Source: Clostridia bacterium (lineage in GTDB: Bacteria > Bacillota > Clostridia > Peptostreptococcales > JAAYPU01). From it: a stretch of DNA of 64,000 nucleotides. The notes beneath the pieces were generated by a model. The model did no database searches. It was not told the DNA's origin and was given only the letters and a program-made list of their open reading frames with translations. Position numbers and translations under genes: made by a program. The DNA lies in assembly GCA_016278615.1 (NCBI GenBank), contig JADQBM010000054.1, forward strand, positions 23,104 to 87,103. Reading direction: 5' to 3'. Shown here one piece after another: positions 44,344 through 63,278 of this stretch (positions are counted from its first letter, which is position 1; each line of letters begins with the position of its first letter).

Positions 44344-45300
44344 ATGAAAATTCGGTTTGGCTATGTAGCATCTGCTTTAAATCTTGAGGGAATCACGTCG
44401 TCAGGGGTGCTTACTTTTTCCAGATACAAAAAACTATCCCCAGATGACAGGATTAATGAGTTGAAACGAGTTACCATGTCTAATATCAAGGCACTGGAAA
44501 CAATAATAAAATACAACATTAAGAACCAGATTCATTTTTATAGAATTACTTCAAAGCTTTTTCCACTGGCTACACATCCTGAAGTAACAGAATGGAATTA
44601 CAAGGATATTTTTTATAAAGAGTTGGTAGACGTGGGGTCGTTGATTAAAAAATATGACATGAGAGTGGATACCCATCCAGATCATTTTAATGTCATTAAC
44701 AGCTTAAAAGAAACGGTTGTCAGTAGCACCATAAAAGAATTGGAATATCATAATAATATTTTTGAATTGTTAGATTATCCTGAAGGAAAGATGATATTGC
44801 ACTTAGGAAGTACTCAAGGAGGAAAGGAACAAAGCATTGAGCGTTTAGTAAAAAATTTTGAAACAATCTCCAAAGACATCCAATCTAAAATAATTTTGGA
44901 GAATGATGATAAAACCTTTAATATTTTAGAAACTTTATCTACATGTCAAAGGTTGAATATTCCCATGGTATTGGATTATCATCATTATATTTGTAATAAA
45001 GGCGGAATTATTTTAGAAGATTATATACATGAAATATTAGAGACCTGGCGGAAGCAAGCGCTTCCGCCAAAGGTGCATATTTCAAGTTCGCGAGAAGAAA
45101 AAAATAAGATGAGTCATTCAGATTATTTGGATCCTAAAAATCTTTTTGATTTTCTTGAGATTCTAAAAAAAGGAGAGCGGGATGTAGATGTGATGCTTGA
45201 ATCTAAACAAAAAGACAGAGCACTTTTTAGGCTCATGAAGGAGATTAGAGAGATTGACAAAAATATCAAGTGGATAGATGAAACTACCATGGAAATATGA
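44344..45300 (+). CDS. uvdE: UV damage endonuclease UvdE
   Basis: IRFGYVASAL, DTHPDHF, LENDDK, LDYHH: TIM-barrel UvdE signature segments. Confidence 0.8.
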   Translation: MKIRFGYVASALNLEGITSSGVLTFSRYKKLSPDDRINELKRVTMSNIKALETIIKYNIKNQIHFYRITSKLFPLATHPEVTEWNYKDIFYKELVDVGSLIKKYDMRVDTHPDHFNVINSLKETVVSSTIKELEYHNNIFELLDYPEGKMILHLGSTQGGKEQSIERLVKNFETISKDIQSKIILENDDKTFNILETLSTCQRLNIPMVLDYHHYICNKGGIILEDYIHEILETWRKQALPPKVHISSSREEKNKMSHSDYLDPKNLFDFLEILKKGERDVDVMLESKQKDRALFRLMKEIREIDKNIKWIDETTMEI

Positions 45301-45304
45301 TAGA

Positions 45305-45735
45305 ATTTTAGAACAGGGTACAGGTGACAGGTGACAGGGAACAGAGATTAGAGATGTGTAGGGACGAGATTAGGGATTAGGGATTAGAGATTAGGGATGT
45401 GTAGGGACGACCCTTGCGGTTGTCCTTAAGAGATTGTAGGGGCCGGTCGCCGTGCCTGCCCGAGAAAAAGCAAGTTGAAGTTTAAGTGTAAGTAGAAGTG
45501 AAAGTTGAAGGATAAGGGTAAGCAGAAGCAGAAGCAGAAGTAGTTTAAGGTTAGCAAGAAGTCTTTAAACTAACACTACTCCGAAGGAGTCCATTTAAAC
45601 TTAAACTCAACTTATGCTACTCCGAAGGAGTCCACTTAAACTTCAACTTATGCTACTCCGAAGGAGTCCATTTAAACTTAAACTCACCTATGCTACTCCG
45701 AAGGAGTCTATTTATACTTAATACTTATACTAGGA
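45305..45735. repeat. Composite mosaic element (heptamer arrays, GC-rich word, AAGNNN hexamer array, ~41-bp tandem repeats)
   Basis: ACAGGKN heptamers at 45311-45345. TTAGGGA-type repeats with ATGTGTAGGGACGA twice. GTAGGGGCCGGTCGCCGTGCCTGCCCG. Twelve in-phase AAGNNN hexamers at 45472-45543. Four tandem units containing ACTCCGAAGGAGTC at 45576-45730. Confidence 0.85.
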
Positions 45736-45743
45736 GAATTATC

Positions 45744-46190
45744 ATGCATGAATTTTTTATGAGAGAAGCGTTAAAAGAAGCCCAAAAAGCATATGAATTG
45801 GGAGAAGTACCCATAGGAGCCGTTGTTGTAAAAGAGGGGAAGATCGTTGGGTCGGGACATAATATGAGGGAAAGTTTAAAAGATCCTATAGCACATGCGG
45901 AGATTATGGCAATACGAGAGGCTTCCAAGTGTTTAGGTGGATGGAGATTGATAGATTGCGAAATGTATGTTACAGTAGAGCCGTGTCCTATGTGTGCAGG
46001 TGCAGCAGTGATGGCAAGGCTTAAGCATGTTTACATTGGTACTATGGACAGCAAAGGTGGGGCAGCAGGTTCCGTTATGAACGTTTTACAGGATGAACGC
46101 TTAAATCATATGCTTCTGATTACAACAGGGATTTTACAGGAGCAATGTGAAAAAATCATGAAAGATTTTTTCAAACAGTTAAGACACTAA
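45744..46190 (+). CDS. tadA: tRNA adenosine(34) deaminase
   Basis: HAEIMAIREAS and VEPCPMCAGA zinc-binding motifs. The start is MHEFFMREAL after SD TAGGAGA. The track start at 45690 reads through the repeat. Confidence 0.85.
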   Translation: MHEFFMREALKEAQKAYELGEVPIGAVVVKEGKIVGSGHNMRESLKDPIAHAEIMAIREASKCLGGWRLIDCEMYVTVEPCPMCAGAAVMARLKHVYIGTMDSKGGAAGSVMNVLQDERLNHMLLITTGILQEQCEKIMKDFFKQLRH

Positions 46191-46210
46191 GAAAAGGTGA
46201 GTGATACAAA

Positions 46211-46360
46211 ATGTGGGAAGTATTGGATAACGACATATTGAGTATTTTTCTTACGGCGCTGGTTTTGTTAGGGGCTGGGATGTTGATTAAAAATTTGAAA
46301 GAAAAGAAAGAAGCGCAAACAAAAGGCAATCCAAATAACGATTTCAAAAGAAAAAAGTAA
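46211..46360 (+). CDS. Possible small membrane protein (49 aa)
   Basis: Not in the ORF track (under 60 aa). ATG 46211 follows SD AAGGTGAG. It has one hydrophobic helix (ILSIFLTALVLLGAGMLI) and a Lys-rich tail. Confidence 0.35.
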   Translation: MWEVLDNDILSIFLTALVLLGAGMLIKNLKEKKEAQTKGNPNNDFKRKK

Positions 46361-46403
46361 TTGATAGCATGACATAACCCTCTGAAGAAAGGAAAAAACT
46401 AAA

Positions 46404-46673
46404 ATGCTTAAAAGAATTTTTATTGTTGCATTGATTATCCTAATGAGCCTGTCTTTTTATTGTGTGGTTTTTGCAGATAGCAACATAGAGAATGATGAAC
46501 CTTCTACCCTTACAGCGCAGGATGACAATCAAGAAACAACTCAAGAAAGCACAGGAGAAAGCAGAGAGCTCACAACCAGCAGGAGGTATTCATTACAAAT
46601 AGGAATTGCTTTATTAATAATCATTGGAGCCTATAAAATCTATAAATACATTAAATGTAAAAAAAGATCTTAA
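46404..46673 (+). CDS. Hypothetical secreted/anchored protein (89 aa)
   Basis: N-terminal signal-like helix, an acidic Thr/Gln-rich middle and a C-terminal TM helix with a basic tail. Confidence 0.5.
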   Translation: MLKRIFIVALIILMSLSFYCVVFADSNIENDEPSTLTAQDDNQETTQESTGESRELTTSRRYSLQIGIALLIIIGAYKIYKYIKCKKRS

Positions 46674-46895
46674 CTTTTCATGTGGCACCTTAGGATTCTT
46701 AGTCACAGATAATAAGTGAATAAAATAAATTTAATAAAATAGTAATGGTTCTTTAATATGAACGTAACAATTGCAGTTTAATATAAGAGAAGAAGCAAAC
46801 AAGTTCTCCCTCTCTTTAATATATATAAATGCTTAAACTGCGGATTTATTTTTCTGAACTCGCAGTTTTTTGCTTTACAGGCATGAGGTGATAAA

Positions 46896-47120
46896 ATGAA
46901 TCATAAAACAGTTAAAACAATATCTAATATCCTTTTTTATATGGCTATAATTATTGGAGGATATGGGATATTTAAAACAATTATTACTTATATAAACACA
47001 CCACCAGGGGTATGCCCTATTTCGAGTTATAGACAATATTTAATTTATGCCTTGGGATTATCCGTTCTTTCTTTAATTGCGACATGGTTTAATGATAGGA
47101 GATTAGGGAATAGAGATTAA
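46896..47120 (+). CDS. Hypothetical membrane protein (74 aa)
   Basis: SD GAGGTGA. Two hydrophobic helices. The last codons run into the heptamer repeat array. Confidence 0.5.
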   Translation: MNHKTVKTISNILFYMAIIIGGYGIFKTIITYINTPPGVCPISSYRQYLIYALGLSVLSLIATWFNDRRLGNRD

Positions 47121-47170
47121 GATGAATAGATGAAAGTTATGGTTAGTTTTGCTTAGGCAAAACTTTCTTT
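47095..47170. repeat. Short mosaic element (heptamer array plus hairpin)
   Basis: GATTAGGGAATAGAGATTAAGATGAATAGATGAAAG, then the hairpin GGTTAGTTTTGCTTAGGCAAAACTTTC. The same word occurs at 61898-61922. Confidence 0.7.
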
Positions 47171-47171
47171 A

Positions 47172-48092
47172 TTATTCATTAGAATCCTTCTTTTTGCGGC
47201 CAAGGAGGTTGGCGCCTAATACGCCCGCTATGATCAAAGCGGAACCAATGGCTTGATATGTTGAAAAGGGTTCTCCTAAAAAGATAATACCTACAAATAT
47301 AGAAATAACAGTGGATACATTTAGAAAAACACCAGTTTTGTAAGCTTCAATATTCTGCAATGCTTGATTCAGAAAAAAGGTTGATAACACTGTGGTTCCG
47401 ATACCTAAATATAAAACAGAAAAGACAAAAGAAGTATTTTTCAAAGGCTCAAATATTAAAAACATTGTGCCATTAAGCAAATGATGACCTAAAAGCAACA
47501 CACTGTAAAAAATTGCAGATACTGCAAACATGCCATAGCTCATTTCAAATGGAGAGAATTTATTCTTATAGCTTCTTGCAAGGACATTATAAGCGGATTG
47601 TGCAAAGCTGGAAAAGAACAGCAGAACAAGTCCCAACATACTGGCATCCTTAAGATTAAAGCCTTTCATAAAAAAGATAAAGATAACCCCTGAGATAGAT
47701 ACAGAAATGCCAATAGTCTGAAGAAAACTTGGTCTTTCTTTTAGAAATATGGAAGCAAGGATCGCAATCAGTGCAGGAGAGACTGCAAACATGATACCAC
47801 TTTCTATAGAGGATGCGTATTGCAGCCCCATAGCTTGCAGACCAAAGAACAGAACAGAATAAAAAAGAGCTAAAAGACTTAGAGCTTTATAATCCTCTAA
47901 ATAGAGATTTATTTTAAGAATTTTAGTTTTCTTTAGAAGGAAAAGACAAATGAAAGCTACAAAAAATCTAAAGGCAACGGCTTCTAAAGGGGTAGAAGTT
48001 GCTACGGATATTTTTGAACCTATAAATGAAAAACCAACTAAAATCGAAAATAGGATAATACTAATATATGCAACAACGATGTCTCGTTTCAA
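47172..48092 (-). CDS. EamA/DMT family transporter
   Basis: Ten hydrophobic helices in two EamA-like halves. 306 aa. Confidence 0.7.
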   Translation of the reverse strand: MKRDIVVAYISIILFSILVGFSFIGSKISVATSTPLEAVAFRFFVAFICLFLLKKTKILKINLYLEDYKALSLLALFYSVLFFGLQAMGLQYASSIESGIMFAVSPALIAILASIFLKERPSFLQTIGISVSISGVIFIFFMKGFNLKDASMLGLVLLFFSSFAQSAYNVLARSYKNKFSPFEMSYGMFAVSAIFYSVLLLGHHLLNGTMFLIFEPLKNTSFVFSVLYLGIGTTVLSTFFLNQALQNIEAYKTGVFLNVSTVISIFVGIIFLGEPFSTYQAIGSALIIAGVLGANLLGRKKKDSNE

Positions 48093-48130
48093 TCTAATCT
48101 CACTCCTTTAAATTAAACAGGAAAAACATT

Positions 48131-48481
48131 TCATGCCTCTCCGCTAATGGCTAAATTGCAAAATAAGTCATATTCATTTAGAGATAAGGTGAGATGTTCA
48201 TAATTCAACTCAAAATTTGCAACGGATGAATTCAAATCAATATTTCTCAGAACATGAATCGTTGCACAGTTATTATCTTTGGATTTTGCTATTCGAATTA
48301 AGACGCCATAAACACTAGGAAATTGAATGCCTTCAAAAAGCCCTTTGTTTTGCAGTGTAGAGGAAAGCCTTAAAGTTCTGTAATCAATGGGAACCAATAA
48401 ATCCATATCCCATTGGTCTTCGTGGACAACTCTTATTTCAATATCGCTTTGAATATTCAAATTATAATTGTTATAAGTCAT
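48131..48481 (-). CDS. Hypothetical protein (116 aa)
   Basis: ORF only; no motif recognised. Confidence 0.4.
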   Translation of the reverse strand: MTYNNYNLNIQSDIEIRVVHEDQWDMDLLVPIDYRTLRLSSTLQNKGLFEGIQFPSVYGVLIRIAKSKDNNCATIHVLRNIDLNSSVANFELNYEHLTLSLNEYDLFCNLAISGEA

Positions 48482-48572
48482 TATTTTCTCCAGCCTTCAA
48501 AACTATATTATAATATAATGATATAATAAATATAATAACAAATATACTAAAATAAATGAATGGTTAAACAAT

Positions 48573-49616
48573 ATGGAAAGAATTATCTTACATCTGGATA
48601 TGGATGCTTTTTTTGCATCTGTGGAGCAAGTAGACTTCCCTGAGCTTAAAGGAAAGCCTGTTGTCGTGGGTGGAATCGGGGAAAGAGGGGTTGTTGCTAC
48701 ATGCTCATATGAAGCACGTAAATACGGCATTCATTCTGCAATGCCTGGTTTCATGGCCCGTCAGAAATGCGCCCATGCTATTTTTTTGCCTGTAAGAATG
48801 AAAAGATATAAGGAAGTGTCCAACAGGATATTTAGATTGTTAAACCAATACACAAAGAAGATAGAGCCAATCTCTATTGATGAAGCTTTTTTAGACTTAT
48901 CAGAATACAGCGAAGAATACCTATTAATAGCCCGAAAGATTAAGAAAAGCATAAAAAGTCAAACGGGCCTTACAGTCTCTATGGGTGTGTCCTACAATAA
49001 ATTTCTTGCTAAAATGGCCTCGGAGTGGGAAAAGCCAAATGGATTTAAAGTTATTACAAAGGAGATGATTCCCAACATTCTTCTGCCGCTACCCATAGGT
49101 AAAATATATGGAATTGGGGAAAAGACAGTGTCTAAACTTAATGGATTGGGTGTATATCATGTAGAGGATCTAATGAAATGGCCTGTGGCCTATATGGATA
49201 ATTTCTTTGGAAAGCAGGGGGAAGAAATATATAACCTTATAAGAGGCATTGATTCTCGAGAAATAGAAACTGAAAAAGAAGTCAAATCTATAGGAAGAGA
49301 GACAACTTTAGACAAGGATACGGATGACATGACAACGTTACTGGAATATCTTAAAGGATTCTCTGTTCATGTGTCATATGCATTGCGTGTTAAAAAACTC
49401 TATGCAAAAACCATTACAGTTAAAATAAAAACAGATCGATTTGCACAGCATACCAAGAGCAGAACCATAGATACACCCATAGATAAATCAAAGGACATCT
49501 ATAAAGAGGCTGCAGATTTGTTAAAAGAAATGAAACTCAATGAAAAAATTAGATTAATTGGATTAACCGTTTCGAATATATCAGATGATTATTATGAGCA
49601 GATGAGACTGTTTTAG
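48573..49616 (+). CDS. dinB: DNA polymerase IV (Y-family)
   Basis: ILHLDMDAFFASVEQ, SIDEAFLD and the little-finger region. 347 aa. Confidence 0.9.
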   Translation: MERIILHLDMDAFFASVEQVDFPELKGKPVVVGGIGERGVVATCSYEARKYGIHSAMPGFMARQKCAHAIFLPVRMKRYKEVSNRIFRLLNQYTKKIEPISIDEAFLDLSEYSEEYLLIARKIKKSIKSQTGLTVSMGVSYNKFLAKMASEWEKPNGFKVITKEMIPNILLPLPIGKIYGIGEKTVSKLNGLGVYHVEDLMKWPVAYMDNFFGKQGEEIYNLIRGIDSREIETEKEVKSIGRETTLDKDTDDMTTLLEYLKGFSVHVSYALRVKKLYAKTITVKIKTDRFAQHTKSRTIDTPIDKSKDIYKEAADLLKEMKLNEKIRLIGLTVSNISDDYYEQMRLF

Positions 49617-49829
49617 GAAGAGGTAGAAATTTTTAGATAACAGATAAAAGATAAAAGTTTAGGATAATTTTGTTGCACAAAATTTTCATATTTATCGGAA
49701 AAAAGATTTTACAAAAAAAGAAAGTTTTGCAAAAGCAAAACTCACCATAACTATTATCTATTATCTATTATCTATTATCTGTTATCTCTTATCTATCTCT
49801 TATCTATCTCTTATCTATCTTTTACCCTG
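49617..49829. repeat. Palindromic mosaic element (archetype) between convergent dinB and ald
   Basis: GATAANA-type array at 49634-49657. Hairpins at 49664-49688 and 49722-49741. The reverse-complement TNTTATC array lies at 49749-49822. Confidence 0.85.
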
Positions 49830-50948
49830 TTACCTCAAAAGGTCCATTGGGTCGTAATATGGCAACCCAAGACTTTCTGCTACTGCTTGATAAGTAACCT
49901 TTCCTTTGTAAGTATTTAAACCTTTCAAAAGAGAATCATTTTCCATAAGAGCGGTTTCAACACCTTTTTCAGCCAACTGCTGTGTATAATTTAAAGTTGA
50001 CGCTTCCAGGGCAAAAGTTGATGTCCTTGGAACGGCACCAGGCATGTTGGCGACAGAATAATGAAGGACGCCATGTTTTTCATAACAAGGATTATCGTGG
50101 GTTGTTACTCTATCAATGGTTTCTATTGACCCTCCTTGATCAATGGCAACATCTACAATAACAGATCCTTTTTTCATTGTCTTGACCATTTCTTCTGTGA
50201 CCGTTTTTGGAGCACTCTTTCCTACAACCAATACAGCTCCGATGAGGAGATCCGTTTCTTTAACGGCATTTGCACAATTATATTCATTGTAGGCAAGGGT
50301 CTTTATTCGACCCATAAAAATATCGTCAAGATGAGCAAGTCGCATAGGGTTTATATCCAATACTGTAACGCTGGCACCTAAACCGACGGCCATTTTAGCC
50401 GCATTGGCACCAACAATGCCACCCCCCACAATGGTTACTTCCCCAGGAGCAACACCAGGTACACCTCCAAGAAGTATCCCTGACCCACCATTATACTTTT
50501 GTAGGAGATTGGCCCCGATTTGAACAGACATTCTCCCGGCAACTTCACTCATAGGAGCCAGTAAAGGCAGTGAGCCATTAGGAAGAGAAATGGTTTCGTA
50601 TGCGATTCCTGTAATTTCTTTTTCAATTAAAGCAAGAGTTAATTCCCGATTAGGTGCAAGGTGTAAATAGGTAAAGAGGGTTTGATTCTTTTTAAATAAA
50701 GCATACTCTGAGGACAAAGGTTCTTTAACTTTTATAATCATTTCAGCGTCATTGAACAAACTTGATTTTTGAGAATAGATATGGGCACCTGTTTTGATAT
50801 ATTCATCATCTTCGAAACCACTTCCAACGCCCGCTCCTGCTTCTACTAATACGGAATGTCCCCTCGTGATGAGTGTTCTAACGCCTCCAGGGGTTAAAGC
50901 TACTCTGTTTTCATTGTTTTTGATTTCTTTTGGCACTCCAATAATCAT
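49830..50948 (-). CDS. ald: Alanine dehydrogenase
   Basis: [24 protein letters not shown]-terminus and the NAD-binding [17 protein letters not shown]. Confidence 0.9.
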
Positions 50949-51014
50949 TTTGTATCCTCCTTATTCATAGAAAAATTTTAAGTATTAGATAATCACCATT
51001 TAATAGCAAGCTTA

Positions 51015-51500
51015 TTATAATTTTTTCTTTGTAATTGAATCAGCCTCAGGTTCTGGTGAAACACTATAGTTATTCTTTAATGTGGAAAGAATAACATTTG
51101 TTTGAGTTTTTTGGATCCCTGGAATACTTTTAATACGGTTCATAATACGTTCCAAGGTATGTGTGCTATGGGTAATAATTTTTAAAGAATAATCATAATC
51201 ACCGGTTATATAATAACATTCTAATATTTCATCTTCGCAATCTATAAAGGATAAGAAATCATCTGTGTACTCTGGACGTTCCAACCGGATGTTCATAATA
51301 ACGGACAATTCTTTATGAAGTAAAAGGGGGTCTAAAATAACAGTATACGCCTGAACGACACCTGAACCTTCTAATTTTTTAAGGCGTTCACCCACTGCAG
51401 AGACAGACATATTTACTTTTTTGCTAATCTCAGAGATGGTCAATCTGGCATCTTTTTGAAGAAGCTGAATAATCCTTACATCTGTTATGTCCATAAGCAT
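51015..51500 (-). CDS. Lrp/AsnC family transcriptional regulator
   Basis: HTH DARLTISEISKKVNMSVSAVGERLKKLE plus a RAM domain. It lies directly upstream of ald on the same strand. Confidence 0.85.
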   Translation of the reverse strand: MLMDITDVRIIQLLQKDARLTISEISKKVNMSVSAVGERLKKLEGSGVVQAYTVILDPLLLHKELSVIMNIRLERPEYTDDFLSFIDCEDEILECYYITGDYDYSLKIITHSTHTLERIMNRIKSIPGIQKTQTNVILSTLKNNYSVSPEPEADSITKKKL

Positions 51501-51774
51501 TTCTCCTTTATTCTAAGTATGTAGTTGAAAACGTATTACTATGCGCAAGATTTATTCATATTTTATCATATTGGAGAATGTATTTAAACAGTTAGAGGAA
51601 ACTGCAGAAAATATTACGGTTATTTTATAAAAGACGGAAAATTATTTGAAAGAATTTATTTAAAATGATTGCCATGTATAATTATTTTGGTTAAATCTTA
51701 AATGAATTTAGATTTTAATTGGAAAAATTTAAAAAATAAGGTTATATTCAATAAAGAAATGGGTAGTATAAATA

Positions 51775-51858
51775 ATGAACGGCAAACCCCCTTAAACCCC
51801 CTATTATAAAATATTTATAATCCCCCCACTAAAGGCACTCGTTGGAGTGCCTTTTTTG
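51775..51858 (+). ncRNA. Candidate small RNA with three C-rich motifs and an intrinsic terminator
   Basis: C5-C6 runs at 51787-51791, 51797-51801 and 51822-51827 in an AT-rich context. GGCACTC GTTG GAGTGCC hairpin plus T6 at 51833-51857. No ORF fits. The 5' end is not defined. Confidence 0.3.
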
Positions 51859-51887
51859 AGAATTCCCATGCACAAAATATTTGGTAA

Positions 51888-51896
51888 TGGTATAAT
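51888..51896 (+). promoter_or_regulatory. Extended -10 promoter element (TGGTATAAT)
   Basis: TGnTATAAT match. The -35 is weak. It would drive a ~290-nt glnS leader composed of the mosaic element. Confidence 0.4.
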
Positions 51897-52165
51897 AGTG
51901 TAAAGTCCGTAGGGGCTGGCCTCGCGCCTGCCCGGTAATAGTAAGAGTAAGTTGAAGTTTAAGTTTAAGTAATAAGTAGTTGAAGTACAAGTGTTATGGT
52001 AGATTTTGTTTTACAAAATCCTCTATTTATACTTAAACTACTCCGAAGGAGTCTTTTTAAACTTAAGCTTCACGATTAATACCACTCCGAAGGAGTCTTT
52101 TTAAACTTAAGCTTCACGATTAATACCACTCCGAAGGAGTCCACTTAAACTCAAACTTCAAAATT
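51897..52165. repeat. Composite mosaic element, second copy of the 45305-45735 type
   Basis: GTAGGGGCTGGCCTCGCGCCTGCCCG, an AAGNNN array at 51943-51972, the hairpin GATTTTGTTTTACAAAATC, and a 44-bp tandem unit containing ACTCCGAAGGAGTC. The unit is exact at 52041-52084 and 52085-52128, with a partial third copy. Confidence 0.85.
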
Positions 52166-52195
52166 TATATATATAACGAAAGGTTGGTTGATAGA

Positions 52196-53866
52196 ATGGC
52201 AGCAGATAACGAAAAAAATATAGGAAAAACTGAAACTGAAGAGACGTCTTCAAATTTTATTCAAAATATAATTGATGAAGATTTAAAAGAAGGTGTATAT
52301 AAAAATAGAGTACATACACGTTTCCCGCCTGAGCCAAATGGCTATCTACATATTGGCCATGCTAAATCCATTTGTTTGAATTTCAGCTTGGCTGAAAAAA
52401 ACAAAGGATTATGCAATTTAAGATTTGATGATACGAATCCTGTAAAAGAAGACATCGAATATGTGGAATCCATAAAAGAGGACGTTAAATGGCTTGGATT
52501 TCAATGGGATGGCTTATATTTTGCATCGGATTATTTTCAAAAGATGTATGAATGTGCTGTCAAGCTAATAAAAAAAGGAAACGCATATGTTTGTGATTTA
52601 TCGGCTGAAGAAATAAAAGCCTTTAGAGGTACCCTTAATGGCCCTGGGGAAAATAGTCCTTTTAGAAACAGAAGCATAGAAGAAAATCTTGAATTATTTG
52701 AGAAAATGAAAAACGGTGAATTTAAAGATGGTGAAAAAGTATTGCGCTTGAAGATTGATATGGCATCACCTAATTTAAACATGAGGGATCCCGTTGTCTA
52801 TAGAATTTCTCATAATACGCATCATAACACGGGTGATGAGTGGTGTGTTTATCCAATGTATGATTATGCGCACCCTTTAGAAGACGCTTTTGAGAATATA
52901 ACCCATTCAATCTGCACACTGGAATTCGAAGATCATAGGCCTCTTTATGATTGGGTATTAAAGGAATTAGAATTCATAACCCCTCCTAAACAGATTGAAT
53001 TTGCCAGACTCAACTTGACCCATACAGTAATGAGTAAACGGTATTTGAAAGCCCTTGTAGAGGATGGGGCAGTAGAAGGCTGGGATGATCCCAGAATGCC
53101 TACCATTGCAGGTCTTCGAAGAAGAGGCTGTACGCCTGAAGCCATTCGTGATTTTTGTGATAGAATAGGCGTTGCTAAGAGCAACAGTACGGTTGATATG
53201 GCTCTTTTGGAACATTGCATTCGAGAGGATCTCAAACCCAAAGTTGAGACGAAAATGGTGGTTGTAGATCCTTTGAAAGTTGTTATTACCAATTACCCCG
53301 AGGAACAAGTAGAATGGTTTGAGGTTGAGAACAATAAGGAAGATGAAAGTATGGGAAAAAGAAAAGTGCCTTTTTCTAAAGAAATCTATATTGATAGAGG
53401 AGACTTCATGGAAAACCCCCCTAAAAAGTTTTTTCGATTATTTTTAGGTAATGAAGTGCGTTTAAAAGGTGCTTATTTCATAAAATGCCAAGAAGTCATT
53501 AAGGATTCTGAAGGCATGGTGACTGAATTAAGATGTACTTACGATCCAGAGACTCGAAGTGGAAGTGGATTTAATGCACGAAAGGTTAAAGGAACTTTGC
53601 ATTGGGTGGATGCTGCTCATGCACAAAAAATAACAATCAATGCTTATAGCCATCTCATGGTGCAAAATGAAGATGAAGAAAATGTTCTAAATCCTGAATC
53701 TCTCAAGATATATAAAGGCTATGCAGAACCAAGCATCAAGGATTCAAAACATAATCAGCGATATCAATTCTTTAGACATGGATACTTCTTTGCAGATCCC
53801 GTACTTACAAAAGGCGATGCTTATGTTTTTAATCGAATTGTTGAGCTTAAAAGCTCATATAAGTAA
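52196..53866 (+). CDS. glnS: Glutamine--tRNA ligase
   Basis: [14 protein letters not shown] (HIGH), VMSKR (KMSKS) and a GlnRS-type N-terminus. ATG 52196 is preferred over the TTG at 52184. Confidence 0.9.
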
Positions 53867-53887
53867 AAATTAAAGATTGTGACCATA

Positions 53888-53937
53888 AATCAGGCTAAGG
53901 TTAAAACTGTTCATTGACCTTAGCCTGATTCTTTATT
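53888..53937 (+). terminator. Rho-independent terminator after glnS
   Basis: AATCAGGCTAAGGT / ACCTTAGCCTGATT 14-bp stem followed by a T-rich tail. Confidence 0.7.
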
Positions 53938-54038
53938 ATACTTACAATGTCGTTTTAAAGAAATAAACCTACTTAAGAGTGATTCATTTACAATAGATTA
54001 GATAATGGACCCAAAAGGTTTTTTTAGAAGGTGAGAGT

Positions 54039-55628
54039 ATGAAAGAAAAGAATAATACAAAACATACATTAATTCATTGGCATAATTTTAAACTCAAACT
54101 GGTTTTTGAAGGCCTTGCCATCGGCATTTTAACAGGATTGGTTATTGTTGCCTATCGCGTGCTTTTAGACTCGGCTTCTCATCTTCGGAGTGCGGTGGTT
54201 GAGGCAACGAGGGGGAATCCAATTAAAATCATAGCATTTTTTGGCGTCTTAATCTTAATTGGAGCGATCATTAAATATATGATAAAAAAAGTACCTTTAA
54301 TCAGAGGGAGCGGTATTCCCCAAGTAAAGGGGTTCTTATACCGAAAGTTTGATATGGAGTGGAAAAGTACACTGCTATATAAATTTATTGGAGGCGTATT
54401 AGCCATTGGTGCGGGACTTTCTTTAGGGAGAGAAGGGCCTTCTATACAAATTGGTGGCGCAATTGGTAAAGGCTTTTCTGATATATTTAAAAGAAAAAAA
54501 TTAGAAGAAAAATTTCTTGTCACAGAAGGTGCCAGTGCAGGACTTGCGGCTGCTTTCAATGCACCCCTGGCAGGAGTTATGTTTTCATTGGAGGAGCTCC
54601 ACAAGAATTTTTCACCCATTGTAATTATTTCTGCGCTCACCGCTTCAGTAACGGCGGACTTTATTTCAAAAAGTTTTGTAGGAATCGAACCAATCTTTAA
54701 TTTCAGTGGGGTGGAGGCTTTGCCTTTAAAGTATTACCCTTATGTACTGATCCTTGGACTCATAATGGGTATTTTTGGTGTTATTTTTAACAAGTCTATT
54801 TTAGTAACTCAGAAATATTACAAAAAGAAAACCCTCATTCCCAAAAGGTACAAAGCCTATATTCCCTTTGTTTTGGCCGGAATATTTGCTTTCATTCTGC
54901 CAGAGGTTTTGGGAGGCGGTCATTTTCTAATTGAAGAAATGTCTCATATTAATTTTTCCATAAAATTTTTACTTGTTTTATTACTCATCAAATTTTCCTT
55001 TACGATGATTTGTTATGGTTCAGGAGCACCGGGAGGTATCTTTCTACCTTTACTTGTAATTGGTGCTATTACAGGCAATATCTATGGAGAAATTCTCCAT
55101 CAGTATGTAGGAATGGAAGCGAGCTACATCAATAACATGATGATTCTTGCTATGGCAGGGTATTTCACTGCAATAGTAAGAGCACCAATTACTGGATGTA
55201 TTCTAATTAGTGAAATGGCAGGGTCTTTACAACATTTACTGGCGCTGTCGTTTATTGCAGTTGTTACATATATAATTGCAGATGTAATGAAGTCCAAGCC
55301 CATATACGATTCACTATTAGAGATTTTAGATAGAAATAATCGCAATAATTTTAAAAGTAATACAGATACAAAAGTGATTATAGAAAATGTCGTATGTATG
55401 GGGTCTGAAAGTGAAGGAAAAATGATAAAAGAAATTCCCTGGCCTGAAAACTGTCTTATCGTAGGTATTAAAAGGGGAGATAAAGAGAAAATCCCCACAG
55501 GAGACACCATCTTACAAACAGGAGATCTCATCATTGCCTTAACAGATGAAGACATCGCATCTGAAGCAGTAAAAAATCTCTCTAAAGTAACGGAAGTCTG
55601 CAAAGAAGCAGGGGAAAATGCGAACTGA
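54039..55628 (+). CDS. ClC family chloride channel/antiporter with C-terminal TrkA-C (RCK_C) domain
   Basis: GREGPSIQIG and GAPGGIFLP selectivity-filter motifs. The soluble C-terminal ~80 aa is RCK_C-like. Confidence 0.85.
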   Translation: MKEKNNTKHTLIHWHNFKLKLVFEGLAIGILTGLVIVAYRVLLDSASHLRSAVVEATRGNPIKIIAFFGVLILIGAIIKYMIKKVPLIRGSGIPQVKGFLYRKFDMEWKSTLLYKFIGGVLAIGAGLSLGREGPSIQIGGAIGKGFSDIFKRKKLEEKFLVTEGASAGLAAAFNAPLAGVMFSLEELHKNFSPIVIISALTASVTADFISKSFVGIEPIFNFSGVEALPLKYYPYVLILGLIMGIFGVIFNKSILVTQKYYKKKTLIPKRYKAYIPFVLAGIFAFILPEVLGGGHFLIEEMSHINFSIKFLLVLLLIKFSFTMICYGSGAPGGIFLPLLVIGAITGNIYGEILHQYVGMEASYINNMMILAMAGYFTAIVRAPITGCILISEMAGSLQHLLALSFIAVVTYIIADVMKSKPIYDSLLEILDRNNRNNFKSNTDTKVIIENVVCMGSESEGKMIKEIPWPENCLIVGIKRGDKEKIPTGDTILQTGDLIIALTDEDIASEAVKNLSKVTEVCKEAGENAN

Positions 55629-55882
55629 TATAAGAAAGATAAGAGATAACAGATAAGAGAATCACAAGATAGATAAGAGAATCACAGGAAAGATAAGAGA
55701 TAATAGATAATAGTTAAGGAATAAAAAAGGGACTAAAAGCATTTTAGTCCCTTTTTTAAATCTAAGTAGAAACATAGATAAATCCATGAAAAATGAAGAT
55801 TTTGGAACAAAATCCACCTCAACTGTTATCTGTTATCTATTATCTATTATCTTTCTTGCAATTATCTATTATCTGTTATCTC
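55629..55882. repeat. Palindromic mosaic element between convergent ClC and hydF genes
   Basis: GATAAGA-type array at 55632-55718, a central terminator hairpin, the hairpin GATTTTGGAACAAAATC, and the inverted TNTTATC array at 55822-55886. Confidence 0.85.
55723..55757. terminator. Bidirectional terminator
   Basis: AAAAAAGGGACTAAAA / TTTTAGTCCCTTTTTT, symmetric with A/T runs on both sides. Confidence 0.8.
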
Positions 55883-57085
55883 TTATCTTTCTTTTAATTT
55901 CTTTTCATACATTCCCGTCACCTTATCCAGTATGCCATTCATATAGGCAATGGCGGTACCGTAATTTGTAATGGGAATATTATTTTTTTGGGCTTGGATG
56001 ATTCTTGACATCATTTGCTTTCGGTTAAACATACAACCACCACAGTGGATGATCAATTTATATTCAGAAAGATCATCCCCAAAATCAATACCAGCCTTTG
56101 TAACGGTTTCTATCTTCTTCCCTGTATATTCTTTCAGCCATTTAGGTAATTTTTCTCTTCCGATATCACCCTGCAGAGGATGATGGGTGCAGGCTTCGGC
56201 GATTAAAACCTTATCATAATCCTGAAGTTCACTGATTGCGACGGCACCTGCTATAAAACTGTCTAAATCCCCTTTGTATCGAGACATTAATATAGAAAAT
56301 GAAGTTAAAGGCACATCTTTAGGGAGTATCTCATTGACTTTTTCAAATACCTGAGAGTCTGTTACAACTAAATCAGGTTGATGCTTTATCTTTGTGAGCA
56401 TAACTTCAAGGTTGTCATCTGTTACGGTTATGGCGAGGCCTTTGTGGTCTAAGATATCACGAAGGGTCTGAACCTGAGGTAAGATTAATCGACCTTTTGG
56501 CGCTTGAATGTCTTGAGGCGCAACCAACACAATGGTATCACCTGGCTTTATCAAGTCTCCTAAAATGGTATCCTTCTCATAGAAGGGAACATGATGAAAC
56601 AGCTCCGTTTTTAGGCGCTGGATGGAAGCGGGGTCATTAGTACAAGTCTTAACAAAAGGCATATCAAATTCTTGATACATAGCCATATCAGGATTGAGGA
56701 TATCTATTTTATTTATAACACCTATAACAGGAATATTTGCCTCCTTAAGCATAGAAAGCCATTCATGCTCTATGGGACTTATTGGGTTTTCTGATGAAAA
56801 AATAACTAAAGCAATATCTGTTTTAGAAATAACTTCCCTTGTTTTATTAACACGGAGCGTGCCAATGTCCCCCTCATCATCAATACCTGCTGTGTCAATA
56901 ATAACTACAGGACCTATAGGTAATAGCTCCATAGCCTTGTATACAGGGTCTGTTGTCGTGCCGGATATATTGGATACTAAAGCAATATCTTGCCCAGTGA
57001 TGGCATTAATCAAACTAGATTTGCCAACATTACGCCGCCCAAAAATAGCAATGTGCAGTCTATTGGCATTTGGTGTATGTTGCAT
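55883..57085 (-). CDS. hydF: [FeFe]-hydrogenase H-cluster maturation GTPase HydF
   Basis: GRRNVGKSSLINAITG (G1), DTAGIDD (G3), and C-terminal EACTHH ... HCGGCMFN cluster-binding cysteines. Confidence 0.85.
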   Translation of the reverse strand: MQHTPNANRLHIAIFGRRNVGKSSLINAITGQDIALVSNISGTTTDPVYKAMELLPIGPVVIIDTAGIDDEGDIGTLRVNKTREVISKTDIALVIFSSENPISPIEHEWLSMLKEANIPVIGVINKIDILNPDMAMYQEFDMPFVKTCTNDPASIQRLKTELFHHVPFYEKDTILGDLIKPGDTIVLVAPQDIQAPKGRLILPQVQTLRDILDHKGLAITVTDDNLEVMLTKIKHQPDLVVTDSQVFEKVNEILPKDVPLTSFSILMSRYKGDLDSFIAGAVAISELQDYDKVLIAEACTHHPLQGDIGREKLPKWLKEYTGKKIETVTKAGIDFGDDLSEYKLIIHCGGCMFNRKQMMSRIIQAQKNNIPITNYGTAIAYMNGILDKVTGMYEKKLKER

Positions 57086-57104
57086 GATAAAACCTCCTTT
57101 TCAA

Positions 57105-57265
57105 CTTGATATAGATAAGAGATAACAGATAATAGATAAGAGTTAAGGTAGAAATTTTTCTTTGTTCAAATTTCCTCTATCAATCTTTTAATTCAATTGG
57201 AGATTTTAGAATCAAAATCATCCTTAACTGTTAACTGTTATCTATTATCTCTTATCTTTCAATTT
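57105..57265. repeat. Palindromic mosaic element in the hydG-hydF intergenic region
   Basis: GATAAGAGATAACAGATAATAGATAAGAGTTAAGG (57108-57148), the hairpins GAAATTT...AAATTTC and GATTTTAGAATCAAAATC, then CCTTAACTGTTAACTGTTATCTATTATCTCTTATC (57222-57260). Confidence 0.85.
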
Positions 57266-57269
57266 TCAG

Positions 57270-58688
57270 TTATAAATACAGATCCCTCGTGCCTTCTTCA
57301 ATTTTTTTTAATTGTTCTTCAGTGAGGCTTTTTACTTTTTCTGATTTTATATCCTTTACGGACTGCTGTATAAGTTGATTACCAATAGCCTTTAATTCCT
57401 CATCTGCATAATCCATTAAGTACTCCTTGAAAGTCATTAAGGCATTGGGAAGACAAACATTATTGATTTCACCTGATTTAGCAAGACGCATAAATCGGTC
57501 ACCTGTTCTTCCACTTCGATAGCATGCCGTACAAAAACTAGGGACATAACCGTCCTGACAAAGGACCTTAAGCATTTCCATAGGAGAACGATGATCTTCT
57601 ACATTGAACTGTTTCGTATTCAATTCTTCTTTTTCGGGATTTTCATTAAATTCATCTGTATAACCCCCTACGCCGGTGCAAGAACCGGAGCTTACTTGTG
57701 AAACGCCAAGCTCTAAGACCTTCTCCCTAAAGCCCGGAGCTTCCCTGGTAGAAAGAATAAGACCTGTATAGGGTACAGATAATCGTATGACAGCTACGAT
57801 TTTCATAAACGCTTCATCGTTGATTAAGTGAGGATAGTTCCCTAGGTTAACACCTTCGGCCTTCTTTAATCGGGGTACCGAGATGGTATGAGGTCCTACA
57901 CCAAAGGTTTCTTCCATATGTTCCTTGTGCATCATCATGGCCACGGTATCATATTTATAATCATACAGACCATAAAGCACCCCAAAGCCAACATCGTCTA
58001 TTCCACCCTCCATGGCTCGGCTCATAGCAGTCGTGTGAAATTCATAGTTATGCTTGGGACCATTTGGATGAAGCAATTCATATGTTTCCTTATGATAAGT
58101 TTCTTGGAAAAGAATATAAGTGCCAATGCCTGCTTCTTTTAATTTTTTATAATTCTCAACAGTTGTTGCTGCAATATTAACATTGATTCTTCTGATGCTT
58201 CCGTTATCAAAATGAAAGGAATAAATGGTTTCCATGCACTTGAGGATGTATTCAATAGGGCATTGAAGGGGGTCTTCTCCGGCTTCAAGGGCAATTCTTT
58301 TATGACCTAAGGACTCAAGAACTTGAACTTCTTTCTTGAGTTCTTCCATATTAAGCTGCTTTCTTGTTAATTCAGAATTACAGTTTTTGTAGCCGCAATA
58401 TTCACAATTATTAATGCAGTAATTACTGACATATAATGGAGCAAACATCACAATTCGTTTACCATATATTTTTTCTTTAATCTCTTTAGCAATTTGAAAC
58501 ATTTCTAAAAGAAGTGTTTCATCTTCAACATTTAAAAGTACAGCAGTTTCATCATGGGTCAGACCATTCATCTTTCTTGCTTTTTCTAAAAGTCTTTTTA
58601 TATAATCATGATCCTGAGATTTTTCTTTTGCATACTCTAAAGTTTTTAATATTTCTTTATGATTAATAAATTCATATGCCTTTTTCAT
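57270..58688 (-). CDS. hydG: [FeFe]-hydrogenase maturase HydG (radical SAM tyrosine lyase)
   Basis: CINNCEYCGY radical SAM motif, ThiH-like core, C-terminal CTACYRSGRTG cluster motif. 472 aa. Confidence 0.85.
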   Translation of the reverse strand: MKKAYEFINHKEILKTLEYAKEKSQDHDYIKRLLEKARKMNGLTHDETAVLLNVEDETLLLEMFQIAKEIKEKIYGKRIVMFAPLYVSNYCINNCEYCGYKNCNSELTRKQLNMEELKKEVQVLESLGHKRIALEAGEDPLQCPIEYILKCMETIYSFHFDNGSIRRINVNIAATTVENYKKLKEAGIGTYILFQETYHKETYELLHPNGPKHNYEFHTTAMSRAMEGGIDDVGFGVLYGLYDYKYDTVAMMMHKEHMEETFGVGPHTISVPRLKKAEGVNLGNYPHLINDEAFMKIVAVIRLSVPYTGLILSTREAPGFREKVLELGVSQVSSGSCTGVGGYTDEFNENPEKEELNTKQFNVEDHRSPMEMLKVLCQDGYVPSFCTACYRSGRTGDRFMRLAKSGEINNVCLPNALMTFKEYLMDYADEELKAIGNQLIQQSVKDIKSEKVKSLTEEQLKKIEEGTRDLYL

Positions 58689-58704
58689 TTAATTCCCACC
58701 TTTC

Positions 58705-58957
58705 GTTATTAGGTAACAGGGTACAGGGTACAGGTAAAAGTTCTTAAAGCTTGAAGCCCTAGCTCAAATTGAAGCCCTAACACAGAATTTCTGATTCTGA
58801 TGTAGGTCTCATGCAACGAGAAAGAAATTTTATATTTCGTCTTCTCGACTGCCTGATTTGATGTGCAGGTCTCATACAAGTGGAACTTTCTAATCTACGA
58901 TTAGTTAAAGTTGCCATTCGCTCCGTGGAAACTCTCCAATCGCTGATTGGAATAGAG
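58705..58957. repeat. Mosaic repeat region (GTACAGG heptamers plus GC-richer word modules) in the hydE-hydG intergenic region
   Basis: GGTAACAGGGTACAGGGTACAGG at 58711-58733. TTGAAGCCCTAGCTCAAAT at 58751-58769. The 78-nt block 58854-58931 is identical to the reverse complement of 62025-62102. Confidence 0.85.
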
Positions 58958-58961
58958 TTTT

Positions 58962-59993
58962 TCAGTTAAATCCCGCTGCATCTCCTCTACTTTCGGATAC
59001 CTTTCGACCATAAGATATAATAGATGCTTCAAGTTTTCTTCTATTCTCATATATGGATACATCTTGAATCAGAGGGTTGGGATAAATATCATAAAGCTTT
59101 TGATATTTATAGGGTTCTATTTTTTTCATTACAACATTTGCTCCAGTACAAAAAGGATTAAAGGATTTCTGCGCATTGTTCACCGTTATGGAGGTTGTGA
59201 TGGGCAAATGGGTTTTCTTAAGTAAAATCCTTGTAATAGCAACACATTTTAATGCAATTAAGTTATCACCAGGAGGATATTGGGCCAATGGTGTTTTGGG
59301 ATGAGGAATAAAGACACCAATACCTGCCATTTCAACATCTAATTTCTTAAGGAAAAGGATATCATCTGCCAAGGACTCAATCGTTTGTCCTGGGAGACCT
59401 ACCATAAAACCGCTTCCCGTCTGATACCCAAGAGACTTTAGGTCTTCTAAGCACTTTAACCTTTTTTCAAAGGAAGAGGGGGGATGGTATTTGTTGTATA
59501 ATGTTTTGTCAGCTGTTTCATGCTTAAGAAGATATCGGTCCGCTCCATCTTTCTTCCACTGACGATAGGCTTCAAAGGAGTGTTCGCCGATACTTAATGT
59601 AAGTGCCACATCTCCCAACTTTTTTATTTGACGGATTAAATCTGATATTTTATCTGCATCGTAAAAAGGATCTTCTCCTGATTGAAGAATAATGGATTTA
59701 TACCCAGCTAAAGTAGCTTCTTTTGCGATGGAGACTATGTCATTTGATTCTAAGCGATATCTTGTTGCATCCTTGTTTAATCCATTTATTCCACAATAAT
59801 GGCAAGAAGATTTGCAGTAATTTGAAAACTCTATAATTCCTCGAATATGAATTTCCCGTCCAAAGATCTTTTCAGTTATTTCTGCAGCTTTTGAAAAAAG
59901 ATAGGCATCGCAATTGTCATTTAACAATTCTATGATTTCTTCTTTAGATGGATCTGAATAATCAATAATTTTGTCAATTATGTTATGAGTCAT
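58962..59993 (-). CDS. hydE: [FeFe]-hydrogenase maturase HydE (radical SAM)
   Basis: CKSSCHYCGI radical SAM motif with a BioB-like core. 343 aa. It sits in the hyd maturase cluster. Confidence 0.8.
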   Translation of the reverse strand: MTHNIIDKIIDYSDPSKEEIIELLNDNCDAYLFSKAAEITEKIFGREIHIRGIIEFSNYCKSSCHYCGINGLNKDATRYRLESNDIVSIAKEATLAGYKSIILQSGEDPFYDADKISDLIRQIKKLGDVALTLSIGEHSFEAYRQWKKDGADRYLLKHETADKTLYNKYHPPSSFEKRLKCLEDLKSLGYQTGSGFMVGLPGQTIESLADDILFLKKLDVEMAGIGVFIPHPKTPLAQYPPGDNLIALKCVAITRILLKKTHLPITTSITVNNAQKSFNPFCTGANVVMKKIEPYKYQKLYDIYPNPLIQDVSIYENRRKLEASIISYGRKVSESRGDAAGFN

Positions 59994-59998
59994 GAGAG

Positions 59999-60244
59999 CT
60001 ATACCTTCGTCAGCGCAGATTTCACTTGAATCCCCGCAATCTTACCCAATTTACCTGTAAGTGAACTGACTTCATCTGAGGTGCCATCGATGAGTAGAGA
60101 AATCACGGATATGTTTTTCTCTTTGTAAGGAACGCCCATCCTTCCGATAATCAGGTTTGCGTGAGCATGTAGAATTGTATTGACCTCAGCAGATTTATGA
60201 ATATCTTCTACTACAATACCTATAACTCCAATTCGTTTATCCAT
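59999..60244 (-). CDS. TM1266-family small ACT-like protein (iron-only hydrogenase system regulator)
   Basis: MDKRIGVIGIVVEDIHKSAEVNTILHAHANLIIGRMGVPY pattern and its position directly upstream of hydE. The start is set at MDKRIG after SD AAAGGAG. Confidence 0.6.
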   Translation of the reverse strand: MDKRIGVIGIVVEDIHKSAEVNTILHAHANLIIGRMGVPYKEKNISVISLLIDGTSDEVSSLTGKLGKIAGIQVKSALTKV

Positions 60245-63275: not shown

Positions 63276-63278
63276 AAA

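Follow-up and report, generated by a model that had tools for sequence, protein, structure and literature searches.

Heptamer arrays adjoining a dispersed hairpin module in intergenic spacers of an uncultured Clostridia bacterium

Introduction

Tandem repeats with a 7-nt unit have, to our knowledge, neither an accepted origin nor an accepted function after 35 years. Those of cyanobacteria, the STRR heptamers, were reportedly described by Mazel et al. in 1990. Nostoc punctiforme, from another phylum than the DNA studied here, is also said to carry SDR, hairpin-capable dispersed repeats of 21–27 nt that Elhai et al. 2008 (Genome Res 18:1484) reportedly placed in a conserved context including tandem heptamers and considered mobile; we know of no sequence similarity between SDR and the hairpin module described below.

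No class of long simple-sequence repeat is commoner in prokaryotes than heptamers, and slippage of the polymerase is their proposed cause (Mrazek 2007, as related in PMC4679880 and PMC4692102). For Xanthomonas, the accessible text of Rehm et al. (2015, PMC4692102) places about 90% of the GGGAATC arrays in intergenic DNA near the 5' neighbouring ORF, reports length and sequence variation among close species and counts 70–75 convergent opposite-strand heptamer pairs per genome as potential stem-loops. The paired tandem heptamer or octamer sites on opposite strands in Geobacter metallireducens are read, in the part of Aklujkar et al. (2009, PMC2700814) that is accessible, as global-regulator sites. 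TAACTGA repeats are known from Beggiatoaceae, Cyanobacteria and Bacteroidetes (MacGregor 2015, PMC4679880), a translational role having been proposed for those upstream of start codons, and the STRR and TAACTGA systems show indels in 7-nt steps between strains (PMC4679880). Nostoc heptamers near promoters have been linked to regulation without a mechanism (bioRxiv 10.1101/2022.06.06.494920). In the accessible portions of this literature on Xanthomonas, Geobacter, cyanobacteria and Beggiatoaceae, no function or binding protein is identified.

The present analysis concerns a stretch of 64,000 nucleotides of clostridial DNA, referred to throughout as the window, in which arrays of a GATAANA heptamer flank small hairpins between genes. 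The closest named homologues of its HydF protein are from Caloramator and Thermobrachium (67–68% identity), and the DNA comes from an uncultured clostridial bacterium related to thermophiles. The genes that flank the repeats encode or include dinB, alanine dehydrogenase (ald), glnS, a CLC channel, hydF, hydG and hydE, an MFS transporter, truA, yhbY and an AHSA1-family protein.

Architecture of the elements

Five spacers carry a full element and a sixth carries a lone half-element, as follows (rc, reverse complement; full elements are given without strand).

49617–49829, no strand: full element between convergent dinB (ends 49616) and the alanine dehydrogenase gene (ends 49830). Left side: GAGGTAGAAATTTTT remnant 49620–49634, array 49636–49656 (GATAACA GATAAAA GATAAAA), boundary GTTTAGG 49657–49663. 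Hairpins 49664–49686 and 49722–49743. Right side: boundary (rc) 49745–49751, array 49752–49824 of TNTTATC units, the outer part with an 11-nt period.
55629–55887, no strand: full element between the convergent CLC channel gene (ends 55628) and hydF. Left side: arrays 55638–55658 and 55692–55712, boundary GTTAAGG 55713–55719. Centre: strong G+C-rich bidirectional terminator 55729–55751 with A and T tracts (to 55758). Right side: module hairpin 55798–55815, boundary (rc) 55817–55823, arrays 55824–55851 and 55860–55887.
57105–57265, no strand: full element between hydG (ends 57270, minus strand) and hydF (starts 57085, minus strand). Left side: array 57114–57141, boundary GTTAAGG 57142–57148, degenerate hairpin 57153–57176. 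Right side: module hairpin 57203–57220, boundary (rc) 57222–57228, array 57229–57256. The arms are 89% complementary over 36 nt.
61775–62155, no strand: full element between the MFS transporter gene (stop codon 61778–61780, within the array) and truA (starts 62185). Left side: long mixed array 61780–61892, boundary GTTGTGG 61893–61899, hairpin 61902–61919. Remainder: further hairpin 61958–61982, right array 62128–62155.
63279–63398, no strand: full element between yhbY (ends 63275) and the AHSA1-family gene (starts 63425). Left side: array 63279–63313, boundary 63314–63320, hairpin 63323–63341. Right side: hairpin 63357–63376, boundary (rc) 63379–63385, short array 63386–63398. The element is the same in the Logan and JGI contigs L353 and L354.
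47095–47164, plus strand: lone half-element abutting the stop codon of an EamA transporter gene (47172, minus strand). Degenerate array 47095–47135, boundary GTTATGG 47136–47142, hairpin 47145–47164.

An unrelated repeat of about 110 nt (62015–62124) adjoins the right array of the element at 61775.

Within these spacers TRF reported period-7 arrays at 49635–49657, 49751–49824, 55637–55718, 55826–55888, 57113–57147, 57223–57257, 61777–61890, 62128–62155 and 63280–63319, with 3–16 copies of the unit (2 to 16 overall). TRF and the sequence itself thus agree on the recurrence at five spacers between 49.6 and 63.4 kb and on the half-copy at 47.1 kb that the original prediction had listed, and its description of 49617–49829 as a left array, two hairpins and a right array was accurate. 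The right arrays are, as it held, reverse complements of the left ones (83–94% over 32–42 nt inside one element), and the proposed fold-back of whole elements is borne out by comparison with shuffled sequence for four of them (z = -5.5, -7.0, -12.6 and -3.4). The same reading took the element to be a palindromic mosaic of about 200 bp; the mosaic of arrays and hairpins stands, but element length ranges from about 120 to 380 nt across the five spacers and the true unit is a half-element.

In this half-element, (GATAANA)n is followed by a GTTNNGG boundary heptamer that keeps the register of the array, then by exactly 4 nt and a TTTTG-loop-CAAAA hairpin; two half-elements placed head to head produce the palindrome, with its inverted arrays and fold-back. 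The window holds nine copies, five on the plus strand (47136, 49657, 51993, 61893 and 63314) and four on the minus strand (49751, 55823, 57228 and 63385), and further copies are present in sister-species contigs (L120–122, L170 and L239). The phase GTT..GG, 4 nt, TTTTG is common to all nine window copies and to those of L120 and L170. Boundary words earlier proposed as shared were located at several elements: GGTAGAAATTTTT at 49622 and 57147, and GTTAAGG at 55713, 57142 and 63314 and, on the minus strand, at 57228.

The module hairpins are about 18–23 nt long and A+T-rich with a stem of 7–8 bp, and four spacers carry two each. TTTTG-loop-CAAAA hairpins number 12 in the window against about four expected, nine of them in spacers of the last 17 kb. 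Between copies the stem shows compensatory changes at three pairs (AU to GC or the reverse at two, UA to CG or the reverse at one). Double-sided stem changes amount to 12 against 6.3 in shuffles, a value attained by one of 500 shuffles, and stem registers slid by 1–3 columns give far lower covariation scores. Loops in this alignment were padded by hand, MAFFT alone having misaligned loops of unequal length, which introduces a bias towards structure; because the alignment is hand-built and structure-guided and the copies form three subfamilies, the compensatory changes may reflect few events.

A lax consensus scan for terminators flagged three of the nine module hairpins, among them 49743–49722 on the minus strand, the others having weak stems or poor T-tracts. 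The hairpin that follows ald is orthologous to a plain hairpin with a T-tract in the relative L115, where it is array-free. Rfam gave no match at gathering score in the region and nothing relevant at E ≤ 1 in 45250–64000.

Authenticity of the repeats

With up to one mismatch, the dimer GATAANAGATAA matches the window 45 times, and 41 of these matches lie at 49.6–63.4 kb. Dinucleotide-preserving shuffles give 4.7 ± 2.1 matches and none of them reaches 45. Chance low-complexity sequence or faulty assembly might be suspected in an A+T-rich genome (about 33–38% G+C) of which the short-read contigs terminate inside the arrays. Contigs of this strain assembled independently by Logan and JGI are nevertheless 100% identical to the window, so that NCBI-derived, Logan and JGI assemblies agree letter for letter and an assembly artefact is ruled out, and a sister species has an orthologous copy. 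The reading as chance or artefact is already refuted and retains next to no probability; the intergenic repeats are genuine and multi-copy.

Units, arms and gene ends

Among 51 in-register units, position 6 is free (A in 6, C in 14, G in 14 and T in 17) and the other six positions are near-invariant, an invariance that is partly circular since units were gathered by their similarity to GATAANA. Adjacent units carry the same free base in 13 of 36 cases, slightly above the 0.28 expected by chance. Together with the near-invariance of the other positions this counts against simple recent slippage, and a unit of six near-invariant positions and one free position could instead reflect sequence-specific recognition.

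The arrays would on such grounds be binding sites for a DNA- or RNA-binding regulator or a nucleoid protein. A motif of the form GATAA-N-A that accepts all four bases at one position would suit that role, arrays directly adjoin gene ends and ribosome-binding sites, and comparable roles have been proposed for heptamers near start codons in Beggiatoaceae (PMC4679880) and Nostoc (bioRxiv 10.1101/2022.06.06.494920) and for the paired sites of Geobacter (PMC2700814 in its accessible part). Against these points stand, besides the circularity of the invariance measure, flanking genes that share nothing (dinB, ald, the CLC channel gene, hydF and hydG, truA, yhbY), a copy number varying from 2 to 16, a unit that is not conserved at orthologous spacers and the coexistence of several unrelated units in the genome; nor do any of the works cited, as far as they are accessible, identify a binding protein. 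Binding sites are therefore distinctly improbable as an explanation.

With the arms of an element aligned unit by unit in register, the free position agrees in only one of 11 unit pairs, which makes the arms two similar arrays and fits their independent evolution. The same count leaves a selected perfect stem, and likewise templating of one arm by the other, unsupported.

Arrays start 0–20 nt from stop codons, between ORFs with Pfam support, and two stop codons, those of hydF and of the MFS transporter gene, fall inside arrays. The hydF stop (55883–55885) is the TAA of the outermost heptamer, and the protein ends in EKKLKER here, compared with G-stop in the sister species; the tail and stop codon of hydF in the window derive from the repeat. 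Phase variation classically works through short tandem repeats that adjoin start or stop codons, and the two embedded stop codons could be taken to mark contingency loci in which heptamer copy number switches expression of the adjacent gene. The neighbours are, however, housekeeping genes, the arrays lie outside coding frames save for those two stop codons, a change of 7 nt in sequence with stops in all frames would alter the protein by a few residues at most, and three independent samples of the strain are identical. Phase variation is accordingly given very little credence.

Distribution and other unit families in the window

Arrays occupy about eight spacers of the 45–64 kb part, in which several other spacers are array-free. 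The original prediction had arrays filling the intergenic regions of the backbone, which is too strong, and had noted their absence from a 16-kb island; they are indeed absent there, but no GATAANA element is found anywhere in 1–45 kb, on the island or beyond. Between 16 and 45 kb lie ordinary genes (chemotaxis receptors, CheW, an EAL protein, lipoate ligase) separated by array-free spacers with ordinary hairpins.

The grammar of the GATAANA elements recurs in the window with different units, both hexamers and other heptamers.

51940–52168, plus strand: AAGTNN variant upstream of glnS. Hexamer array 51940–51992; GTTATGG TAGA TTTTG..CAAAA 51993–52018, equal to the boundary and hairpin of the GATAANA half-elements; three 44-nt units, each with a ACTCCGAAGGAGT hairpin, 52037–52168.
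45311–45735, plus strand: composite spacer separating uvdE from a tadA-like deaminase gene. GAACAGG/GATTAGG heptamers 45311–45421; GTAG-led G+C hairpins 45401–45425 and 45436–45461; AAGTNN hexamers 45472–45543; four ACTCCGAAGGAGT units of 36–41 nt 45575–45735.
63861–64000, plus strand: onset of (TAATGAA)n, a third unit family, the window end cutting the array.
58713–58736, minus strand: short array of (GGGTACA)n type just upstream of the hydG ribosome-binding site.

The same-strain contig L353 completes the TAATGAA spacer with a hairpin GGAATTTTGAA..TTCAAAATTCC and (ATTCATT)n up to the convergent tyrS, and the (GGGTACA)n-type unit is also present in the sister-species contig L170. The GTAG-led G+C hairpins at 45436–45461 and 51909–51933 are a separate repeat from the GATAANA module.

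Comparison with relatives

Syntenic contigs of relatives were graded by HydF identity to the window (L120–122, 87%; L115, 80%; L116–119, 79%). The hydF/CLC spacer measures 254 nt in the window, 150 nt in L120, 67 nt in L115 and 3 nt in L116. In L120 the module core is kept (37 of 40 nt) with arrays shorter than those of the window; L115 has three unrelated heptamers and another hairpin, and L116 has none. The hydG–hydF spacer carries GATAANA in the window, AATTATG/TTAAATC around a similar GATTTT..AAAATC hairpin in L120, and hexamers with G+C hairpins in L115 and L116, while the AHSA1/tyrS spacer carries TAATGAA in the window and CTAACCT/TCCATAC in L115 and L116. A single substitution separates L120 from L121 over 2.2 kb; it makes one heptamer identical to the one beside it and leaves the length unchanged. 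Contigs of the same species showed no length polymorphism, all being 100% identical and probably from one strain.

Array lengths thus differ not only between copies, as had been pointed out for the window, but also between related genomes, and the comparison of orthologous spacers that had been suggested as a check reveals variation in both array length and presence. These differences indicate that the period of seven and the location near gene ends and hairpins persist, whereas unit, copy number and presence turn over fast. The hairpin module has been dispersed to non-orthologous spacers, and the arrays change rapidly between relatives.

Searches outside the lineage

GATAANA triplets turned up in more than 113 stretches, spread over many phyla, when one genome of each species was scanned. 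In viral contigs GATAANA was found in 110 stretches and the composition-matched heptamers GAATANA, GTAAANA and GAAATNA in at least 120 each. An element conserved across phyla was rejected on that account, the three control heptamers being at least equally frequent in viral contigs, and it is the period rather than the unit sequence that is generic. An inverted partner within 500 nt accompanies about five of 94 foreign GATAANA arrays. At a locus of Tychonema (L090), GATAACA stands next to GTCAACA in a mixed array, the latter unit presumably being STRR3. A search of metagenomes with the half-element pattern yielded three true copies among the 120 matches listed, the others being mostly chance matches in coding DNA, and the pattern is too weak for a database of that kind. 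To judge from these searches, the half-element appears to be restricted to its lineage. CRISPR, type III antitoxin RNA, DnaA boxes, a CodY box and G-quadruplexes were dropped as candidates on sequence grounds.

Relation to described repeat classes

The original prediction regarded the short-period arrays as undescribed. The excess of heptamers in intergenic DNA is in fact known (Mrazek 2007, via PMC4679880 and the accessible text of PMC4692102), and inverted arrays have precedents in the convergent heptamer pairs of Xanthomonas (PMC4692102) and Geobacter metallireducens (PMC2700814), as the accessible parts of both papers show. The window arrays have at least three head-to-tail 7-nt copies, exceed chance, lie near gene ends and vary in unit and copy number at the same spacer between related genomes, as LSSR/STRR repeats do, and the same unit lies close by on opposite strands and is able to pair, as in the Xanthomonas type. 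The window repeats belong to the described class of bacterial 7-base intergenic repeats.

Within that class the resemblance differs from system to system. With the GGGAATC repeats of Xanthomonas and the GGGGA(C/T)T repeats of Nostoc the window shares tandem 7-nt intergenic units, convergent pairs and, for Xanthomonas, occupation of the same spacers in related species with variable lengths and sequences, so far as the accessible text of PMC4692102 goes. In contrast to those G-rich units, studied as G-quadruplex formers according to the same accessible text, GATAANA cannot form a G-quadruplex; the host phyla differ from Clostridia, and the hairpin module at a fixed array phase has no counterpart described for Xanthomonas-type repeats in what is accessible of PMC4692102. 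Cyanobacterial STRR and TAACTGA repeats likewise form dispersed intergenic arrays of several unit families per genome that adjoin start or stop codons, mixed arrays included, but are mostly direct, unlike the pairs in the window; BOGUAY has one indirect repeat against 169 direct sets (PMC4679880). The sites of Geobacter metallireducens are also multicopy tandem units of 7–8 nt in opposite-strand pairs at variable spacing; their copy number is fixed at 4–5 and a hairpin module is unreported in the accessible text (PMC2700814), whereas the window arrays vary and have the module.

A likeness to the logic of REP/BIME elements had also been proposed, and it holds for the hairpin module, the inverted pairs and the confinement to spacers. 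Like REP/BIME/REPIN palindromes of 20–40 nt (Bertels & Rainey 2011, PMC3116915), the module is a small extragenic hairpin, often in inverted pairs that fold into a long structure, which forms mosaics with other motifs, lies at gene 3' ends and probably attracts other insertions. It does not extend to membership: GTAG was not found 5' of the palindrome, all copies carrying GTTNNGG and 4 nt there, the stem is A+T-rich rather than G+C-rich, and there is no RAYT gene among the window ORFs, so REP membership fails. The arms, furthermore, are microsatellite arrays of variable length instead of fixed sequence. MITEs are resembled in the inverted arms, but the definition of a MITE does not fit: no target-site duplications were seen by eye and lengths span about 120–380 nt.

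Origin and possible role

The preferred explanation, the correctness of which is judged close to evenly balanced, is that heptamer arrays have grown by slippage on the outer side of a terminator-like hairpin module that is dispersed among spacers, and that they exert an effect at the RNA level. In its favour are the common module and phase, the compensatory stem changes, the terminator-like hairpins, the turnover at orthologous spacers, the heptamer conversion between L120 and L121, the imperfect match of the arms and the fold-back of whole elements. From the boundary the (GATAANA)n microsatellite would extend outward in register as far as the end of the adjacent gene. Slipped-strand mispairing, proposed as the general process behind the bacterial heptamer excess, would let the arrays gain, lose and change units 7 nt at a time. 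The hairpin module would spread by copying, through transposition or gene conversion, as REP/BIME elements do, and the elements may be mainly tolerated or selfish DNA. Each gene would then have a 3' UTR that opens with a purine-rich array containing stop codons in every frame and continues into a weak terminator hairpin, and read-through or polycistronic transcripts could form an imperfect duplex of 20–40 bp between the two arrays, a putative 3'-end stabilizer, insulator or RNase III site. Any function would probably be exerted at transcript ends.

Several observations count against parts of this explanation in addition to the unit pattern discussed above. The small number of hairpins that pass even a lax terminator scan and the weakness of their A+T-rich stems tell against the terminator part, and the clustering in 45–64 kb with absence from 16–45 kb, like the identity of all same-species contigs, also stands against the explanation. 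A Pfam search of 59 window ORFs found Tn7-like genes as the only transposition genes and no HUH, RAYT or other candidate transposase, which counts against the copying step.

Chief among the rival explanations is non-autonomous mobility of REPIN or MITE type, in which a transposase such as a Y1 HUH enzyme acting on the single-stranded hairpin would mobilize the half-element or the inverted pair in trans; the heptamers would be either transposase-binding sites or by-products of repeated nicking and rejoining at a fixed distance from the hairpin. The strict boundary and spacing at non-orthologous sites point to copying rather than independent origin, and the compensatory changes in the hairpin, the REPIN-like long hairpins formed by inverted pairs, the presence and absence among relatives down to the 3-nt spacer of L116 and the recognition-motif-like unit of six fixed positions and one free position are all in keeping with mobility; a second small repeat at an array end (62124/62128) suggests sites that attract insertions. 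The same evidence base, however, contains only Tn7-like transposition genes, no target-site duplications at element ends on inspection by eye, non-uniform lengths of 120 to 380 nt and a module that lacks the REP-defining 5' GTAG. A single recognition sequence is moreover hard to reconcile with unit families that differ at the same spacer between relatives and among the spacers of one genome. A mobile element of this kind is thus considered unlikely, and protein binding, phase variation and artefact rank below it.

The constant phase in which the covarying hairpin, boundary heptamer and in-register array stand to one another might point to a further, enzymatic origin of the arrays, in which a hairpin-recognizing nickase or transposase of HUH type, cutting at a constant distance on the 5' side of the hairpin, would add 7-nt units through repeated rounds of abortive cleavage and rejoining. 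This is a speculative proposal that is thought a little less probable even than protein binding.

Conclusions

If the arrays did arise enzymatically, the locus would provide a concrete mechanism for the bacterial heptamer excess and would define a previously unrecognized class of very small clostridial mobile elements. In practice, heptamer arrays of such genomes break short-read assemblies and can shift gene ends. The locus is a clean case of heptamer repeats in a new lineage, that of uncultured Clostridia related to thermophiles. Its value lies mainly in two features: the anatomy of hairpin, boundary and array, with arrays locked in phase to a small hairpin of conserved structure, and the graded series of relatives, the orthologous spacers of which show arrays appearing, growing and switching unit.

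Tn7-like block and adjoining repeats

The block between 5014 and 15979 comprises a Tn7-like transposon with two TniQ genes and, after it, a type III restriction-modification pair.

5014-6063, TniQ, first copy
6273-8948, TnsA-like/TnsB fusion (rve, Mu-transposase C)
8988-10169, TniB/TnsC-like protein
10214-11512, TniQ, second copy
11769-13370, type III restriction-modification methylase
13382-15979, type III restriction-modification Res helicase

A search of the upstream ORFs at 52-3562 against Pfam produced no matches. Duplicated segments are found immediately beyond the block, within 16297-16830, and include two 35-nt pairs (16297/16507 and 16351/16618, the latter 100% identical). A repeat of roughly 90-110 nt, TTGAAGCCCTAGCTCAAATC...GTTGCCATTCGC, is present in this region, with further copies at 58854-58941, inside 58740-58960, and at 62015-62124 (97% identical); the last of these is directly adjoined by a heptamer array. 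Rfam gives no match, and the repeat may have originated as a Tn7-like end or attachment site. Farther on, the 389-nt spacer at 18167-18555, flanked by convergent UDG-family and kynureninase-like genes, seems on visual inspection to hold what is left of a reading frame for an IS3-type transposase.

Hairpin repeats and the chemoreceptor region

Further hairpins and a riboswitch were located in the window.

32618-32691, c-di-GMP-I riboswitch (59.6 bits), 5' of the chemoreceptor gene 32767-35376
45401-45425, 45436-45461 and 51909-51933, G+C-rich hairpins with a leading GTAG (GTAGGGGC..GCCC)
45575-45735 and 52037-52168, tandem 36-44-nt units with one ACTCCGAAGGAGT hairpin per unit

The tandem units lie immediately 5' of a start codon, that of a tadA-like deaminase gene in the first case and that of glnS in the second, and in each hairpin a Shine-Dalgarno-like GGAG pairs with CTCC. 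They are similar in size to type III antitoxin repeat arrays, but the genes that follow them are housekeeping genes. The GTAG-led hairpins appear REP-like by eye, and similar GTAGGG hairpins occur in relatives (L115) and at unrelated Firmicutes loci (L016, L034 and L091); no RAYT gene is present in the 64-kb window. The riboswitch lies inside a series of three MCP gene paralogues (27.7-35.9 kb; 69-82% identity over 300-nt stretches), the last two of which are each followed by a CheW gene.

Heptamer arrays

An association of arrays with hairpins also occurs in a distant phylum: in many Chryseobacterium species (loci L002, L014, L033, L044, L075, L081, L110 and L114), (GATAAAA)n is followed 20-50 nt on by a conserved TCAATAGGGGTGGGCTTTAGCCC hairpin motif. 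A-rich heptamer arrays with at least three copies are also frequent in IMG/VR contigs (loci L243-L675), including many giant-virus MAGs (GVMAG), and are built from several different units.

In the window, hydF has lost its original stop, and the repeat flank and first heptamer supply a replacement tail and TAA stop, such that the protein ends in …GMYEKKLKER* (55883-55905) compared with …GMYG* in the sister species. Two samples of the sister species, L120 and L121, differ only once across 2.2 kb: at L120 position 3932 the free base of a heptamer is exchanged between G and C, and this substitution renders two neighbouring units identical. Short-read Logan contigs of the same strain as the window (L001, L353 and L355) begin or end within heptamer arrays (window positions 55862, 57137, 62128 and 49769); the arrays break up assemblies of this organism.
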